A DNA stretch of 64,000 bases from Labilithrix sp. (GCA_044226145.1 JBGAHN010000003.1:22536-86535), one strand, 5' to 3'; shown: positions 3,979-10,407, counted from the first letter of the stretch. Notes: generated by a model not told the origin, from the letters alone. Made by a program: numbers and translations.

Positions 3979-6180
3979 TCACTCCGACTTCGGCAGCGAC
4001 TCGGCGGTCAGCGACGACGGCGGTGGCGTCGTCAACGACTCGCCCGCGCCCGGCAGTTGGATGACGAACTTGCTGCCGAACCCCGCCTGGCTCTGCACGT
4101 GGATGTTGCCGCCGGCGTTCTGCACGATGCTCTGGCTGATCGCGAGCCCGAGGCCGGTCCCCTGTTCTTTCGTCGTGAAGAACGGGACGAAGAGGTTCTT
4201 CAGGACCTTCTGGCTGATGCCGGGCCCCGTGTCCTGGACCGCGATCTCGACGATCTCGGGATCTTCGGTGCGCGCCAAGAACGACCGCTCGCTCGACGGC
4301 CCCGCGGAGATCCACGAGCTGCGCGGCGCGCGCCGCTGCGAGGTGCTGATCGTCACGCGTCCGCGCCCGTCCATCGCCTGGATGGCGTTCTGCACGAGGT
4401 TCAAGAGGACCTGCCGGAGCTTCTCGGGGTCGATGCGCGCGCGCGGCAGCGACTCGGCGAGCTCGAGGCGCACCTCCGTCTCCTCGCTCTTCTGGCTCGC
4501 GAGGATCTGCATCGTGCGACGGACCGCCGCGTTGATGTCGACGGGCACGGGGTTGCCCGCGTGCGGCCGCGCGTAGTCGAGGAAGCTCCCGACGACGCGG
4601 TTCAGCCGGTCGGTCTCTTCGAGGATGATGCCGAGGAACTCCTTGCTCGTCGGATCGCCCGCGCCGGCCTCCACTTCTTCGAGGAGCTGCGCCGCGCCCT
4701 TGATGGCGCCGAGCGGGTTCTTGACCTCGTGCGCGAGCCCCGCGGCCATCGATCCGAGCGCGGCGAGGCGATCGCGATCCTTCATGCGCGCGTAGATGCG
4801 GCTGTTCGCGATCGCGACGCCCATCTGCGCGGCGACCATCTCGAGGAGCGAAATCTCCTCCGGGGTGAACGCGTCGCGGACCCGCTCGTCGGCCACGCAC
4901 AAGAGTCCGACGAGCTCCTCGCCGTCGCCGCGGATCGCGAGCACGACCGCGCTCTGCAGCGGGCCGAGCGCCGCGGCGGCCGTCAAGAGAGGGGCCATCG
5001 CTTCCCGGACCGAAGCCGGCGCGCGTTCGTGCGAGCCCGCCTCCGCTTCCCGCGCGACTTCCTCGAGCGAGAGCGACAAGCCGAGCCGTTCGAGGAGCGG
5101 CCGCATCGCGAGCGTCTCGAGGCGAGGGCGCGGCGCCGCCCCGAACGAGCCCACGAGATCGAAGCCGGCGTCGTCCAAGTCCCGGAGGTACACGGCGCAC
5201 GACGTGACGCGTCGCGAGCGCTCGAGGCCCGCGAGGACGACTTGGATCATCTCCTCGTTCTCGAGCGTGTGCGCGAGCCTCCGCCGGAGCTCCATGACGC
5301 TCGTCTCGAGGTCGTAGCGTTCCCGGAAGAAAAAGCGATGGATGCGCGTCTCGACTTCATGCTCGAGCGGCTCGAACAAAACCAAGAAGACGATCGCGAC
5401 GAGGACGGCATTCAAATACATCGCGCCGAACCGGCCGATGTACGTGATGAAGAAATAGAAGATGCCCGCGAGCGCGAAGGCGAGCGCGGTCGACACCAGG
5501 AGCCGCCCGACGAGCTCGTAGAGATCCGCGAGGCGCGGGCGCGCGAGCGACTCGGCGAGCACGAAGAGGAAGATGACGGCGAGCACCGCGCCGATTGGCG
5601 GCAGGTACACGCCGAGGAACGAGACGAAGTCGGCCAGCGTGAACGTCATCGCCAGCGCACCGACGGTGGCGAGGAACCGCGTGCGATCGCGGACGGCACG
5701 CGACGGGCTCGCCTGGCCGCGCCGCCAGAGCGAGAGCAGCGCCGCGGCGAGGAGCCCGAAGACGTAGAGGTAGACCGCGCCGAGCACCAGCGCCCGCACC
5801 GCCGCCGACGCGCCTTGGTAAGGCGACAAGACGACGGCGAGCATCGGTACGCCGAGCGCCGCCGCCACGCGCCCGAGACGCGACCGAATCTTCGCGTCCG
5901 CCGGCGCCTCTTCGTCGATCGGCGTGATCGAGCGGAAAAGGTGCACCGCGAACTGCGGAAGGAGCACCGTCAATACGCCCGTCGCGCGCTCGAAGATCGC
6001 CTTCTGCGCGTCCTGCATGAGGTCCGCGAGCGATTGGCTCACGTACCAGAAGGCGAGGCACGTCGAGAACGCCGCGAACAACCAGTGCTGGGTGCGACGC
6101 CCGCGGAGGAGCATCGAGAGCCCGATCGCGAACGCGATGACGCCGCAGAAGAGGGTCGTTCGTGCGCGAAGATCACCCAC
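3979..6180 (-). CDS. Multi-pass membrane sensor histidine kinase with GAF-like domain
   Basis: Several N-terminal TM segments; H-box LAHEVKNPL, N-box NLVQNAIQAM, DTGPGI, FVPFFTTK, GTGLGL; no receiver domain. Confidence 0.92.
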   Translation of the reverse strand: MGDLRARTTLFCGVIAFAIGLSMLLRGRRTQHWLFAAFSTCLAFWYVSQSLADLMQDAQKAIFERATGVLTVLLPQFAVHLFRSITPIDEEAPADAKIRSRLGRVAAALGVPMLAVVLSPYQGASAAVRALVLGAVYLYVFGLLAAALLSLWRRGQASPSRAVRDRTRFLATVGALAMTFTLADFVSFLGVYLPPIGAVLAVIFLFVLAESLARPRLADLYELVGRLLVSTALAFALAGIFYFFITYIGRFGAMYLNAVLVAIVFLVLFEPLEHEVETRIHRFFFRERYDLETSVMELRRRLAHTLENEEMIQVVLAGLERSRRVTSCAVYLRDLDDAGFDLVGSFGAAPRPRLETLAMRPLLERLGLSLSLEEVAREAEAGSHERAPASVREAMAPLLTAAAALGPLQSAVVLAIRGDGEELVGLLCVADERVRDAFTPEEISLLEMVAAQMGVAIANSRIYARMKDRDRLAALGSMAAGLAHEVKNPLGAIKGAAQLLEEVEAGAGDPTSKEFLGIILEETDRLNRVVGSFLDYARPHAGNPVPVDINAAVRRTMQILASQKSEETEVRLELAESLPRARIDPEKLRQVLLNLVQNAIQAMDGRGRVTISTSQRRAPRSSWISAGPSSERSFLARTEDPEIVEIAVQDTGPGISQKVLKNLFVPFFTTKEQGTGLGLAISQSIVQNAGGNIHVQSQAGFGSKFVIQLPGAGESLTTPPPSSLTAESLPKSE

Positions 6181-6269
6181 GCGGCAAGGCTACAGCGGTC
6201 CCGTGGGTCGAACCGCGGATTTCGTCGGGATGGATGAGCCGACGAAAAAGCTGCGCCGATGCGCGACGA

Positions 6270-6584
6270 CTACTTCGACGAGCCCGAGCCCGAGCGTTGG
6301 CCGCTGCCACGGCTCGGCGAGCCCGACCAAGGCACGGGATTGGGTCCCTGGGTTTCGCCTTTGTTCGGAGCGAACGACTCGAACTGCCGAAGGTTGGCGT
6401 CGAGGGCAAACGGACCCTTCGTCGAAGATCCGCCCGCGTTCGAATCGTCGTCGCCAGGTGCGGTCGACGAGACGTCGCTCTCCAACGTCTGTTCGTCGTC
6501 TTCGGCGCCCGTTTGCACGGCGCACGCCGGGAGCGCGAACGCGAGGAGAAGAAGGCAGCGCGAAAAGATCCCGAACCGGTTCAT
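6270..6584 (-). CDS. Small exported lipoprotein/peptide (104 aa), unknown function
   Basis: ATG at 6584 overlaps the upstream TGA (ATGA); MNRFGIFSRCLLLLAFALPA-C has signal peptide plus lipobox-like LPAC; acidic linker, then QGPNPVPW and a Ser/Gly tail. Confidence 0.75.
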   Translation of the reverse strand: MNRFGIFSRCLLLLAFALPACAVQTGAEDDEQTLESDVSSTAPGDDDSNAGGSSTKGPFALDANLRQFESFAPNKGETQGPNPVPWSGSPSRGSGQRSGSGSSK

Positions 6585-9500
6585 GAGCTTCCCTCGGAAG
6601 AATACGCCGAAAGTCCGTACTGTTTCACGAGTTGTGACAAACGCGGACGTTTCATGCCCAAAAGCGACGCCGCCCGCGTGATATTCCCTTGTGTTTCCGA
6701 AAGCGCCCGGGCGATGCAATCCCGCTCGATTTGACGCTTCATGTCGGAAAGTGAGACGGTCCCCTGCCGGACGCACGAGTACGCGGCCGACGTGACACCG
6801 GACTCTTCTTCGGGGAGCACACCGCTCACGTCGTCGTCGCCGAACACCTCGCCCGAGAGGCTCGCCGGGGGCGGCGGCAGGAGGCTGCCTCGGATCGACA
6901 GCGACGGCGGCGGCTGCGACGCGGGGCCGGATTGCGCGAGCTCGCGGAGATCGTCGACGTTGTCGATGAGGTCGCCCATGCGAATCTCGGAGCCTTCCGC
7001 GAACAGCGACACCGCGCGGAGCACGTTTTCGAGCTCGCGAACGTTGCCCGGCCACCGGTGGCGGCTGAGCAAATCCACGGCGTCGCGCGCGAGCGTCTTC
7101 GGCGACTCGTCGCGCTCGGCGGCGATGCGCGCGAGCAGGTGTTCCGCGATTTTCGGCAGATCGCCGATGCGCGCGCGCAGGGCCGGGACCTCGAGCGTGA
7201 TGCCCCGGAGCCGGTAGTAGAGATCCTCGCGGAACTCGCCGCGCTCGACCATCGCCCGGAGATCGCGGTGCGTCGCGCAGATGATCCGGACGTTGGCGCG
7301 GATCGACTGCGTCCCGCCGACGCGCTCGAAGGTCTTCTCTTGGAGCACGCGCAGGAGGGCGACCTGCGTGCGCGGGGAGATGTCGCCGATCTCGTCGAGG
7401 AAGAGCGTGCCTCCTTCGGCGAGCTCGAAGCGTCCGCGACGGCGCGCGCTCGCGCCGGTGAACGCGCCTTTTTCATGACCGAAGAGCTCCGACAGGAGGA
7501 GCGTCTCGACCAGCGCCGCGCAGTTGACGCTGACGAGCGGTCCCGTCGCCCGATCGCTCGCGCGATGAAGGGCCTCGGCCACGAGCTCCTTGCCCGTGCC
7601 GCTCTCGCCGCGGACGAGCACGGTGGCGTTCGAACGCGCCACTTTTCGAATGGCGGTGTTGAGCGCACGAATCGACGGATCGTCGCCGACGAGCTCGCGG
7701 GCCATGCCGGTATCGTTCGACACCGGCATGCGCGAAAGCGGCGCGATCTCGTCTTCCGACTTCAGCTCGCAATCCGCCAACGACGTCGAGAGGCGCGAGA
7801 TCGCGACGACGTCGGCCTTGGCGAGGTACGCGGCGCGCACGTCGGGAGGAAGCGTCGCCGCGATTTGATCCCGAAGCGCGGTGGCGCGGCCGATCTGCGC
7901 CTGGGCGTCGAGGACGTTGCCTTGATCGCGGGAGATGGTCGACAGCAGGAGGTAGATCTCGGCGAGGAGATCGACTTCCTTCGCCTCGTGGACGAGGGCG
8001 CACGCGTCGCGCGCCGCATCGAACGCGGGCTTGCCCACGGCGCGGAGATGATGCGCCGCCAGGATCGCGAACTCGGCCTTCGCGCGGGCGCTCTTCACGG
8101 TCTTGGAGGCGTGCGCCAACATCGCTTCGGCGCCGCGGACGTCGCCTTCCTCGAGGGCGATGCGAACCGAAACCGCGCGGATGACCTCGATCGTCTGAAA
8201 ATCGCGCGAAACTTCGGCGTCGATGAGCGCGGCTTCGATCTCGCGACGCGCGAGCTCGCTGTTCCCGCGAGCCAGCGCGATTTGGGCAGCCACGCGCTTG
8301 AAGTTGGCGGACAACGTCGGGATGGACTTCGTGGCGACGCCGCTCGAGAGCAGGCGGCGGCCGAACGCGACGCCGTGCTCCGCGTGGGCGATGAGGCCGA
8401 GGAAAAGCCTGACGTCGGCGAGGTTCGTGATGGACGTCAGCGCGAGACGAGGACCGAGCACGGAGTGCGGGTATCGGACCGTCGCCTCCCAATGCGCGAG
8501 CGCGCCGCCGTAATCCCGCTGGCTGAACGCGATGACGCCGAGGTTCAGGTGCGCGTGCGCGACGGCCTGATCGATGCCCCAACGTTCGCCGTCTTCGCGG
8601 ACGAGCTCGAGGATGGCGCGGGCGTCGTCGAGCGCGCCCTTCGACAAGAGCGCGATGCCGCGGTTGACGCGCGCGCGGAGCTCGGAAGAACGTTCGCCCG
8701 CCGCCGAAGCATCGAGCGCGTCTTCGGCGAACGACGCGTCGGCTTCGTCCCAACGACCTTCCGCGAGGAGGACCTTGCCGATGGTGTTGCGCACCGCGAG
8801 CTTCGTGTGCGCGGACTTCGTCGACGCCATCGCGCGTTCGGCACACGCCGTCGCGTCCGCGAGCTGGCCGGCGAGGTAGTCGACCTCCGCGAGCTCCGCG
8901 AACGTCTTCGCGCGCAGCTCCGCGTCCTGCGTGAGCGAGAGCGCCTTGTTCAACGAGATGCGCGCCGCGACGATGTCGCCGAGCGCCGCCAGCGCGCGCC
9001 CCATGAGGAGCGACACCGTCGGCTCGGCCGCGTCGATGGCGGCCGCGCTCTCGCACCAACGCTGCGCCTCGCGCGCTTCACCGATCGCGAGCGCGCGCTC
9101 GGCCGCGCGGACACGGAGCGCGAGCCCCGCTTCGCCGCGGACGGTTTCCAGCGCGTCGAGCCAGGTCCGACCGATCTCGCGCGCGGCCTTCGGGTCGGAC
9201 GCCGCGCGAAGGGCCTTGTCCATCGCCACGTCGGCGTCGTCGATCCGTCCCGCGCCGACCAAGAGCTCGGCGGCGCGCGCGTACGCCCACGGATCGGGCG
9301 TCGTGCCGGGGCCCGCGAGCAGGTGCGCGGCTTCGACCTGGAGGTCTTGCAGATCGAGCTCGCCCTGGACCTTGGAGACCCACGGCAGCACCGTCACGAG
9401 CGACTCGTTCCGGACGACGGCGCCGCTCGCCACGAGCTCGTCGATCGCGTCGTTCGCCGCGATGACGGAGAGCGGCAACGAACGCCCCGCGAGGACGAGG

Positions 9501-10318
9501 CAGCCGAGCCAGCGGCGCGCGCGATCGCTCAGGCCATGGAGCGTCGACTCCGCCTTCGGCGAGAGACGCCGAACGAAGCTCCACCACGTGTCGAGCGATT
9601 CGAGATCGGCGCTCGAGAAATTCGTCCAGACCTCTTCGGCCACTCCGCTCAGCCAACGGAGCTTGTCGGCTTCGCCGAGCGCGGGATCGAGCACGTACGT
9701 CTCGGTTTCGTTCGCGCCTTGATCGGCCATCGAAGCTTCGATGGCGGCCGCCGGGTCGTCCGTGACGAGCACGAAGAGCGACGAGCTCGTCGGGCCCGAC
9801 ATGCGACGCGCCAGCTCGTCGACCACGGCTCCGTCCCAAGTCTCGGCTTTGGGGAGCGTGAGGAGGACGTGCGCGCCACGCTCGACGATCGCGCGCGCCA
9901 ACGTCTCCGCGCACGCCGACGCGTCGCTCGGGACCTCGACGCCGAGCTGCATGGCGAGCTCGCACGAAACCGGCACGTGAACCCCGCCCCGCGACGCGTC
10001 GAGCGCCGTGAGCACGTTCGCTCGGTTCGCGCGCAACCGCCGCGCGAGGTGCGCGATCAGCGCGACGTGCGAGCTTCGCGGGGCGGACACGACGACCACT
10101 CCCGGAACCAAGGGGAACGTCGCGACGCGGTCGTCCAAATCGACGAACCCACGCCCGCGGCGCGCATCACGTGCGCCCGGAAGCGAAACGACGTTGTGGA
10201 TGGGGAGCGAGAAAGCCAACGGGCGAAACCTAGCCGATGGGAGATCCGGTTCAAGGACGGAAGAGCCTCTCTTACGTCTCCAAAGGTGGGTTCTGTGGGG
10301 GAACGTGCTTCGGTGCAA
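6581..10318 (-). CDS. Sigma54-dependent enhancer-binding protein with N-terminal degenerate NTPase-like region and TPR-like repeats
   Basis: GESGTGKE, SELFGHEKGAFTGA, TLFLDEIGD, RWPGNVRELEN, C-terminal Fis-type HTH (GNITRAASLLGMKRPRL); long helical TPR-like middle; true start uncertain (possibly ~10150). Confidence 0.9.
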   Translation of the reverse strand: MHRSTFPHRTHLWRRKRGSSVLEPDLPSARFRPLAFSLPIHNVVSLPGARDARRGRGFVDLDDRVATFPLVPGVVVVSAPRSSHVALIAHLARRLRANRANVLTALDASRGGVHVPVSCELAMQLGVEVPSDASACAETLARAIVERGAHVLLTLPKAETWDGAVVDELARRMSGPTSSSLFVLVTDDPAAAIEASMADQGANETETYVLDPALGEADKLRWLSGVAEEVWTNFSSADLESLDTWWSFVRRLSPKAESTLHGLSDRARRWLGCLVLAGRSLPLSVIAANDAIDELVASGAVVRNESLVTVLPWVSKVQGELDLQDLQVEAAHLLAGPGTTPDPWAYARAAELLVGAGRIDDADVAMDKALRAASDPKAAREIGRTWLDALETVRGEAGLALRVRAAERALAIGEAREAQRWCESAAAIDAAEPTVSLLMGRALAALGDIVAARISLNKALSLTQDAELRAKTFAELAEVDYLAGQLADATACAERAMASTKSAHTKLAVRNTIGKVLLAEGRWDEADASFAEDALDASAAGERSSELRARVNRGIALLSKGALDDARAILELVREDGERWGIDQAVAHAHLNLGVIAFSQRDYGGALAHWEATVRYPHSVLGPRLALTSITNLADVRLFLGLIAHAEHGVAFGRRLLSSGVATKSIPTLSANFKRVAAQIALARGNSELARREIEAALIDAEVSRDFQTIEVIRAVSVRIALEEGDVRGAEAMLAHASKTVKSARAKAEFAILAAHHLRAVGKPAFDAARDACALVHEAKEVDLLAEIYLLLSTISRDQGNVLDAQAQIGRATALRDQIAATLPPDVRAAYLAKADVVAISRLSTSLADCELKSEDEIAPLSRMPVSNDTGMARELVGDDPSIRALNTAIRKVARSNATVLVRGESGTGKELVAEALHRASDRATGPLVSVNCAALVETLLLSELFGHEKGAFTGASARRRGRFELAEGGTLFLDEIGDISPRTQVALLRVLQEKTFERVGGTQSIRANVRIICATHRDLRAMVERGEFREDLYYRLRGITLEVPALRARIGDLPKIAEHLLARIAAERDESPKTLARDAVDLLSRHRWPGNVRELENVLRAVSLFAEGSEIRMGDLIDNVDDLRELAQSGPASQPPPSLSIRGSLLPPPPASLSGEVFGDDDVSGVLPEEESGVTSAAYSCVRQGTVSLSDMKRQIERDCIARALSETQGNITRAASLLGMKRPRLSQLVKQYGLSAYSSEGSS

Positions 10319-10407
10319 GTAAGGCGCTTTTTACGCTTTCATATCGAGGGCCTAGGAACCATGACCCGAATCGGGAAACGCGCAAGGTATCCCTTTCGAT
10401 AGCGTCC

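Follow-up and report, generated by a model that had tools for sequence, protein, structure and literature searches.

A small predicted lipoprotein gene with a conserved proline heptad is coupled to a TPR-bearing sigma-54 activator gene in Labilithrix-type myxobacteria and suggests an undescribed ligand-receptor pair

The stretch of DNA analysed here (the window) comprises 64,000 nucleotides from Labilithrix sp. (GCA_044226145.1 JBGAHN010000003.1:22536-86535). Three consecutive genes on its minus strand are of interest, a long gene encoding a sigma-54 activator, a small gene encoding a predicted exported lipoprotein of 104 amino acids and, after a gap of 89 nt, a gene encoding a membrane histidine kinase of 733 amino acids. 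The TGA of the activator gene (6583..6581) overlaps the ATG of the small gene (6584..6582), which ends with TAG. The flanking genes are housekeeping genes (FTHFS, DUF2520 and a cytidylyltransferase), and neither a gene encoding a receiver domain nearby nor an exosortase context in the window was found. The coordinates of all features are given in Table 1.

Table 1. Features of the activator-lipoprotein-kinase locus
Position	Strand	Feature	Basis
6581..10318	-	Sigma-54 activator (bEBP), longest open frame 1245 aa; true start probably downstream, at TTG 10219 or at GTG 10090 as in the public 1169-aa call (record P0055)	Pfam Sigma54_activat (PF00158, 8e-70), AAA_lid_14, HTH_8; weak TPR hits; GAFTGA at 7468..7451; Walker A GESGTGKE; TTG 10318 lies inside a promoter-like -12 element
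9353..10162	-	Predicted degenerate STAND-type alpha/beta NTPase-like domain plus helical and winged-helix modules; Walker A position reads APxxxH	AlphaFold2 residues about 20-289, pLDDT mostly above 85; best PDB match 6MFV, a STAND protein with a TPR sensor (E 2.5e-10); H57 and R60 invariant, no GxxxxGK[ST]
7751..9352	-	Predicted superhelical TPR sensor region, about 26 helices or about 13 repeats	AlphaFold2 residues 290-823, pLDDT 90-98; Foldseek hits to the OGT, LGN and Ctr9 TPR superhelices; weak Pfam TPR and TPR_MalT hits
6950..7693	-	AAA+ sigma-54 interaction domain with its lid	PF00158 at residues 876-1042, PF25601 at 1048-1123
6638..6736	-	Fis-type HTH DNA-binding domain	Pfam HTH_8 at residues 1195-1227
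6581..6584	-	ATGA stop/start overlap coupling the activator gene and the small gene	Same 4-nt overlap (ATGA, GTGA or TTGA) in 39 of 41 homologous loci; gap of 4-5 nt in the other two
6270..6584	-	Gene of the 104-aa heptad lipoprotein (predicted)	159 family clusters at 50% identity among 1.84 billion proteins, all small; no Pfam or NCBIfam match
6522..6584	-	Predicted signal peptide (residues 1-20) and lipobox Cys21 (LPAC, atypical Pro at -2)	Cys invariant in both family alignments; lipobox-type Cys in 190 of 192 family proteins; 175 of 191 pass the PROSITE rule, the window's subclade fails it on Pro at -2
6327..6347	-	Heptad GPNPVPW (residues 80-86), a single copy; only conserved element of the mature protein	P, P, P and W invariant, G nearly so; highest pLDDT block of an otherwise disordered model
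3979..6180	-	Membrane histidine kinase, about 9 TM helices with short loops, then GAF, HisKA and HATPase; PrsK-like but below that family's cut-off	Pfam; TIGR02916 (PEP_his_kin) 120.8 bits against a cut-off of 300, match spanning residues 17-617; adjacent in all orthologous loci, TM domain 76-88% identical; single-copy per genome
10314..10329	-	Degenerate -24/-12 element AAGCGCCTTACTTGCA; -12 part (CTTGCA) intact, -24 GG reads AG	Same letters in independent metagenome contigs; relatives carry TGG(A/C)TC(A/G)-N3-CTTGCA at the equivalent place

The product of the small gene is MNRFGIFSRCLLLLAFALPAC/AVQTGAEDDEQTLESDVSS...GPNPVPWSGSPSRGSGQRSGSGSSK. It has a positively charged n-region and a hydrophobic core, the stretch after the cysteine is acidic, and the heptad is followed by a G/S-rich tail. 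The lipobox is atypical in that it carries Pro at -2, and the window's copy and its three closest homologs thereby fail the strict rule of PROSITE PS51257 ([LVI][ASTVI][GAS]C); lipidation is a prediction. AlphaFold2 with 37 homologs predicts no fold beyond the signal-peptide helix (pLDDT 54.7), which fits a disordered protein. Thus, the observation made in an earlier note, namely a signal peptide and lipobox-like LPAC, an acidic disordered linker, a compact proline motif and a GS-rich tail encoded by a small ORF that overlaps the activator's stop codon, is correct.

Several lines of evidence show that the small ORF is a real gene. The GC content at codon positions 1/2/3 is 0.60/0.57/0.79 in this frame. 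Three close homologs (64-74% identity) exist in the same synteny and with the same ATGA overlap. Compared with two homologs, dN/dS is about 0.40 overall and 0.06-0.18 for residues 1-41, where dS is 0.35-0.56, so that the conservation is at the protein level. A near-identical contig of 291 nt from a sludge metatranscriptome spans 6348-6638 and thus the junction of the two genes, and the whole locus of a relative is assembled from RNA-seq libraries. Both fit expression, although DNA carry-over cannot be excluded. The organism itself turns up in sludge, bioreactor and biofilm metagenomes from several studies. The earlier note further expected that annotation pipelines would easily miss or mis-start this ORF. 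This is not supported, since the 104-aa protein and its homologs are already present as called genes in public collections, albeit named only 'hypothetical protein'. Source annotations of homologs name Labilithrix sp. and Polyangiaceae.

The earlier note had proposed as a test that a small ORF with a conserved PxPxPW-like motif, but without a conserved linker, should lie downstream of homologous activators. A six-frame search of 60 relatives with the 104-aa protein alone gave only weak hits (E 2e-5 to 0.3), which became meaningful only when they proved to lie downstream of activator homologs. We therefore located homologs of the activator's N-terminal region in 60 related genomes, retrieved 40 loci and read what follows each stop codon. 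In 41 of 41 activator genes, an ORF encoding a small lipoprotein (85-226 aa) by prediction begins at the stop codon. This set covers orthologs, four paralog classes, other genera of the family and six other families of the order, and metagenome contigs show the same arrangement. In an alignment of 29 of these proteins, the only invariant columns are the lipobox Cys and P-x-P-x-P-W, with a nearly invariant G before it, whereas mean column identity is 23%. The test was thus clearly positive, and the refuting condition of the earlier note, no small ORF or conserved motif downstream of orthologous activators, does not hold. In the six distant families the lipoprotein is larger and has a Cys-containing domain without a Pfam match, but it still ends in 1-4 copies of DPSPQPS, DPNPQPN, DPTPQPA or DPSPDPM. 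The motif GP.P.PW occurs only 10 times in 11.8 million six-frame residues of the genome, and only one of these is the gene studied here; by chance the motif appears about 8.5e-7 times per residue. A profile search of 1.84 billion representative proteins detected the family clusters listed in Table 1. A scan of the phylum with a profile from one alignment (A2) mostly returned matches to the signal peptide only outside the family, and full-length matches were confined to one family (f1).

The heptads bear a signature of specificity. Of 192 family proteins, 175 carry exactly two heptads, and in 175 of the 179 proteins with several copies the copies are identical in amino acids. In contrast, at least 40 variants occur between proteins, with H, L, S, V, Q, R, F, E, N and others at the first variable position (x1) and E, D, Q, V, N and others at the second (x2). 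In 23 proteins for which the DNA was examined, the two identical heptads differ synonymously at 58 of 161 codons (36%), including Ser TCG against AGC and Leu TTG against CTC. Selection on the peptide therefore maintains the identity. Recent gene conversion or duplication is ruled out by these differences, and so is a constraint on DNA or RNA, the latter also in view of the dS in the conserved N-terminal part. The distant families show the same pattern with DPSPQPS, DPNPQPN and DPTPQPA repeats. Within single genomes, paralogous pairs carry different heptads. One of the related genomes (G015) has pairs with GPVPDPW, GPFPQPW, GPQPVPW and GPYPEPW, and these variants map onto well-supported clades of the activator tree, although this is also what shared descent alone would produce. 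A genus-mate with a 12.19-Mb single-contig genome carries two pairs, with GPSPDPW in two copies and with CxxC-GPSPQPW. Some subclades add CxxC directly before the first heptad (45 proteins). The heptads are followed by hydrophilic G/S/N tails of 4-47 residues, which end in KP in 77 of 191 proteins and contain no TM segment.

Concerning the protein that might read the heptad, the kinase follows the pair in every orthologous locus and in several other families, but it is missing beside all paralog pairs and is single-copy in genomes that hold 2-4 pairs. Its membrane domain is about 80% identical where the activator N-termini are about 50% and the lipoproteins about 25% identical. The kinase is therefore disfavoured as reader of the heptad. 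The genes next to paralog pairs are unrelated to each other. Identified by eye from the ORF translations without a domain search, they look like glycogen synthase, Hsp70-like, LOG, LLM oxidoreductase, another FHA-bEBP, arginine decarboxylase and MATE, and no linked protease or peptide permease gene was found among them. Between the small ORF and the kinase gene only one weak hairpin was found, which as a terminator is no better than shuffled sequences. The activator is thus the only partner that is always present and that diversifies with the heptad.

The activator is a bacterial enhancer-binding protein by its AAA+ domain with Walker A and GAFTGA and its C-terminal Fis-type HTH, and sigma-54 (rpoN) is present in the genome (PF04552, 218 bits on contig C259). 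The weak TPR and MalT-TPR hits lie in the 850 residues or so preceding the AAA+ domain. The N-terminal 833 residues give a confident AlphaFold2 model (pLDDT 90.5, pTM 0.85) with an eroded P-loop (consensus APxxxHxA) in the NTPase-like domain. The top PDB match, 6MFV, is followed by TPR superhelices such as OGT and LGN, which bind extended peptides.

With regard to regulation, a -24/-12 element (consensus TGG-A/C-T-C-R-N3-C-TTGC-A) lies on the coding strand upstream of the activator gene, with a match of at least 10/12 in 18 of 35 loci and of at least 9/12 in nearly all genus members. Background is 0.02 per 800 nt, and only two hits fall on the opposite strand. As judged from sequence, the operons of most relatives are therefore sigma-54-dependent, and positive autoregulation is plausible. 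In the window itself no site within 1 mismatch of TGGCAC-N5-TTGC was found, and at the equivalent position the -24 GG is lost, so that autoregulation is doubtful here. The TTG at 10318 is part of this element, which places the real start codon probably downstream. The window's copy is a divergent member of the family, with a single heptad, Pro in the lipobox, a decayed -24 element and a long activator branch, yet still under purifying selection.

Taken together, our analysis establishes a conserved activator/lipoprotein pair that is translationally coupled everywhere examined, a disordered carrier whose only conserved element is the heptad [G/D]-P-x-P-x-P-[W/...], variable residues that differ between paralogs and lineages but are kept identical between the tandem copies within one protein, and an activator N-terminus modelled as a degenerate STAND NTPase followed by a long TPR superhelix, a fold that typically binds extended peptides. 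Function, including lipidation, processing, uptake, binding to the TPR domain and any effect on the activator, is inferred. Our best, still tentative, explanation is that the two proteins form a cognate receptor/ligand pair as the conserved core of a signalling module in Labilithrix-type (Polyangiales-like) myxobacteria. In this view, the prolipoprotein would be exported and lipidated, proteases would release one or two identical heptapeptide-containing fragments, and these would re-enter the cytoplasm through a peptide permease and bind the TPR groove of their own activator. This would change how the N-terminal domain controls hexamer assembly of the AAA+ domain and hence sigma-54-dependent transcription, in most relatives including that of the operon itself, which would give positive feedback. 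Paralogous pairs would then be insulated private channels, as Rap-Phr pairs are in Bacillus, and the PrsK-like kinase downstream of the ancestral pair would be a second, shared input or output. Besides the insulated paralogs and the likely autoinduction, the identical tandem copies favour this reading, since RRNPPA propeptides can carry tandemly duplicated pheromones (PMC11343458). However, the ligand is predicted to be exported and lipid-anchored while the TPR domain is cytoplasmic, so that a route of maturation and re-import has to be assumed, and release from within the C-terminal region would need two cuts. The interpretation given in the earlier note, a peptide-sensing circuit analogous to RRNPP systems but wired to sigma-54, is thus partly supported, as a functional analogy and not as membership.

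Other explanations have to be considered. The topology problem would be solved without re-import if the TPR domain bound the heptad of the not-yet-exported prolipoprotein, which the same ribosome makes next to the activator. Efficient Sec/Lgt/Lsp/Lol traffic would remove the ligand, and failure of export or lipoprotein maturation would let the precursor accumulate in the cytoplasm and switch the activator, making the lipoprotein a monitoring substrate for envelope biogenesis. The universal coupling fits such co-translational pairing in cis at fixed stoichiometry, so does a disordered carrier with an N-terminal signal and C-terminal motifs, and the arguments from heptad and TPR domain apply equally. 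Nevertheless, we consider this export sentinel unlikely, because several insulated pairs with different heptads in one genome are hard to justify if all of them report the same export pathway, and positive autoregulation would amplify a stress signal without limit. Also unlikely, though slightly less so, is a role solely in the periplasm or outer membrane, for example as a co-sensor of the PrsK-like kinase or as a ligand of another envelope protein, with mere co-expression of the activator. The predicted location is extracytoplasmic, the kinase follows directly in the ancestral locus, also in other families of the order, and signalling from lipoproteins to kinases has precedents in NlpE/CpxA and RcsF. 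Moreover, PrsK/PrsR systems include a TPR lipoprotein, PrsT (PMC1569441). Against this stand the absence of the kinase beside paralog pairs, its short loops and conserved membrane domain in the face of diversifying heptads, the lack of any other conserved neighbour that could serve as a paralog-specific periplasmic partner, and the lack of a receiver domain in the activator to take a phosphoryl signal.

Two further readings are very unlikely. A translation-arrest peptide, in which P-x-P-x-P-W stalls the ribosome until export pulls on the nascent chain and so regulates the downstream gene, would fit the layout of an N-terminal export signal, a spacer of about 54 residues and a Pro/Trp-rich C-terminal motif upstream of the kinase gene in orthologs. 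But the ribosome tunnel is the same for all paralogs, so that arrest does not explain paralog-specific residues kept identical between tandem copies, paralog pairs have no conserved downstream gene, and alternating PxP is not known as a strong arrest motif. Finally, the small gene may be an unrelated passenger of the operon whose proline motif serves a structural role, as 4-nt overlaps are common in GC-rich operons and the link between the two products rests on sequence alone. Yet the pairing survives at 41 of 41 loci, across paralog duplications and relocations and across families with activator identity down to about 27-35%, and the concerted evolution of the heptads argues against it as well.

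Compared with the RRNPP(A) quorum-sensing pairs of Bacillota (Rap-Phr, NprR-NprX, PlcR-PapR, Rgg-SHP, PrgX, AimR-AimP), the pair shares a gene for a proposed receptor with a modelled TPR domain, predicted to be cytoplasmic, followed directly by a small gene for a predicted exported precursor, a short motif near the C-terminus of an otherwise non-conserved protein, and distinct motifs of paralogous pairs in one genome. Positive feedback is common in these systems, and phr genes overlap the 3' end of rap genes. However, the activator gave no Pfam or NCBIfam hit to RRNPP receptors, and no RRNPP structure appeared among the top 50 Foldseek PDB matches. The predicted receptor is a 13-repeat TPR domain behind a degenerate STAND NTPase fused to a sigma-54 AAA+ activator, the precursor is a predicted lipoprotein of a diderm bacterium and not a Sec/SPI or PptAB substrate, and the taxon is Myxococcota, whereas the RRNPPA survey covers Firmicutes only (PMC9765709). 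With STAND transcription regulators with repeat sensors (MalT, AfsR/LAL regulators and PH0952, PDB 6MFV), whose TPR/SUPR sensor binds the inducer, the modelled activator shares the order of an NTPase-like domain, helical and winged-helix modules and a repeat sensor. It differs in the eroded P-loop, which makes nucleotide-driven switching unlikely, in the output through a sigma-54 AAA+ domain and a Fis-type HTH instead of a LuxR- or SARP-type DNA-binding domain, and in the proposed ligand, a genetically coupled peptide or protein. PrsK/PrsR/PrsT regulators of PEP-CTERM/exosortase systems (TIGR02916/02915/02917; Haft et al. 2006, PMC1569441) likewise combine a multi-TM GAF histidine kinase, a sigma-54 activator, TPR repeats and a lipoprotein, and many heptads contain P-E-P. 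But the kinase, although matched over its full length, remains below the cut-off, the activator lacks a receiver domain and carries the TPRs itself, and the lipoprotein has neither TPRs nor the C-terminal TM helix and Arg cluster of a PEP-CTERM domain. Membership in the RRNPP, PrsK and PEP-CTERM families is therefore rejected. With secretion-monitoring arrest peptides (SecM, MifM, VemP) the small gene shares a C-terminal Pro/Trp-containing motif in an ORF placed so that export status could be sensed, but its heptad varies between paralogs and is duplicated identically, and no conserved gene lies downstream of the paralogs.

Literature searches found no description of this pair. In the papers found, peptide signalling read by cytoplasmic TPR receptors is described only for Firmicutes and their mobile elements (PMC9765709). 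Sigma-54 activators are known to be controlled by phosphorylation, small molecules and protein partners, and control by genetically coupled peptides is not known. A more far-reaching and on balance unlikely possibility, which the evidence does not contradict, is a peptide-pheromone system of a Gram-negative lineage that arose independently of RRNPP, in which lipoprotein precursors release identical GPxPxPW heptapeptides that are read in the cytoplasm by the TPR sensor of a STAND-derived sigma-54 activator, with up to four insulated paralogous channels per genome and sigma-54-dependent autoinduction. It would be the first peptide-gated bacterial enhancer-binding protein and the first cytoplasmic-receptor peptide quorum sensing in Myxococcota.

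A previously unnamed protein family is thus welded to a distinctive STAND/TPR sigma-54 activator across a whole myxobacterial lineage. A short invariant scaffold, variable specificity positions, tandem copies kept identical by selection and paralog-specific variants are what a private ligand-receptor code would leave. Even if the reader of the heptad turns out to be something else, the pair is a well-defined and experimentally tractable module, and Labilithrix luteola is cultivable. If the model holds, it would supply orthogonal peptide/activator pairs for synthetic biology, give a new principle for controlling enhancer-binding proteins and open cell-cell or envelope-to-cytoplasm signalling in social, predatory myxobacteria to direct test.

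At the site that carries a sigma-54 -24/-12 promoter in relatives, the window reads AAGCGCCTTACTTGCA, with an intact -12 part, whereas the GG has become AG. The TTG with which the longest open reading frame of the activator begins lies inside this element, so the activator must start further downstream. In one strain variant (sequencing run X4) the site is changed further, at position 10327. Directly after the stop codon of the small ORF a weak terminator-like hairpin with a T-run is found, but it is not more than shuffled sequence gives, and its fold z-score is -0.8. The membrane and GAF region of the kinase aligns over its full length to the PEP-CTERM kinase PrsK, even though it remains far below the cut-off, and the TM domain of the kinase is unusually conserved across the genus (76-88% identity).

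Sequence runs X26 and X27 were compared with positions 5900-7300 of the window. An 8067-nt contig of a relative's locus, with genes on both strands, is assembled from libraries labelled metatranscriptomic at a depth of 46-75, which means either broad transcription or DNA carry-over. In this comparison the part comprising the C-terminus of the lipoprotein and the intergenic stretch is replaced by unlike sequence.

Coordinates of the features in the window and of one homologous locus
Feature	Location	Strand
Site equivalent to the sigma-54 -24/-12 promoter of relatives	window 10314-10329	minus
TTG start of the longest activator ORF	window 10318	minus
Kinase	window 3979-6180	minus
Terminator-like hairpin with T-run	window 6254-6268	minus
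Lipoprotein C-terminus plus intergenic stretch, replaced by unlike sequence	window 6201-6343	
Tandem locus L062 (genome G021, contig C6)	73600-84500	

Concerning the sequences around the heptad, a CxxC motif sits directly before the first heptad (e.g. CAGCGPVPDPW) in the homologous loci L061, L063, L064, L066-L069, L072, L075, L076 and L083 and in 45 of 191 database members. It could be a disulfide or a metal site, and it is lacking in the window's copy. In loci L077 and L079, which belong to the paralog class GPQPVPW, the heptad is followed by a Cys-rich hydrophobic extension (WCSAFVCGTVSCPCLPF...), unlike the G/S tails of other classes. Moreover, among the family proteins (P0006-P0314), 77 of 191 end in Lys-Pro (KKP, TKP or NKP), a conserved C-terminal dipeptide which could be a processing or recognition signal. 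An odd relative of 165 aa from the search of representative proteins (P0309) is without a lipobox and carries five tandem GPVPDPYRTRT units, with Tyr in place of Trp.

In other families of the order (loci L091-L096) the coupled lipoprotein is larger (119-226 aa) and has a conserved Cys-containing segment (APAGCEG...VC[IV]DT) that matches no Pfam family, followed by 1-4 identical DPxPQPx repeats in place of GPxPxPW. At L062 and at L074 (genome G027, contig C343) a tandem arrangement is present, in which an activator and a lipoprotein with two copies of GPHPDPW are followed by a second activator paralog, a second lipoprotein (GQPEPW/PPPW) and then the single kinase. This arrangement looks like a snapshot of how paralog pairs arise by local duplication.
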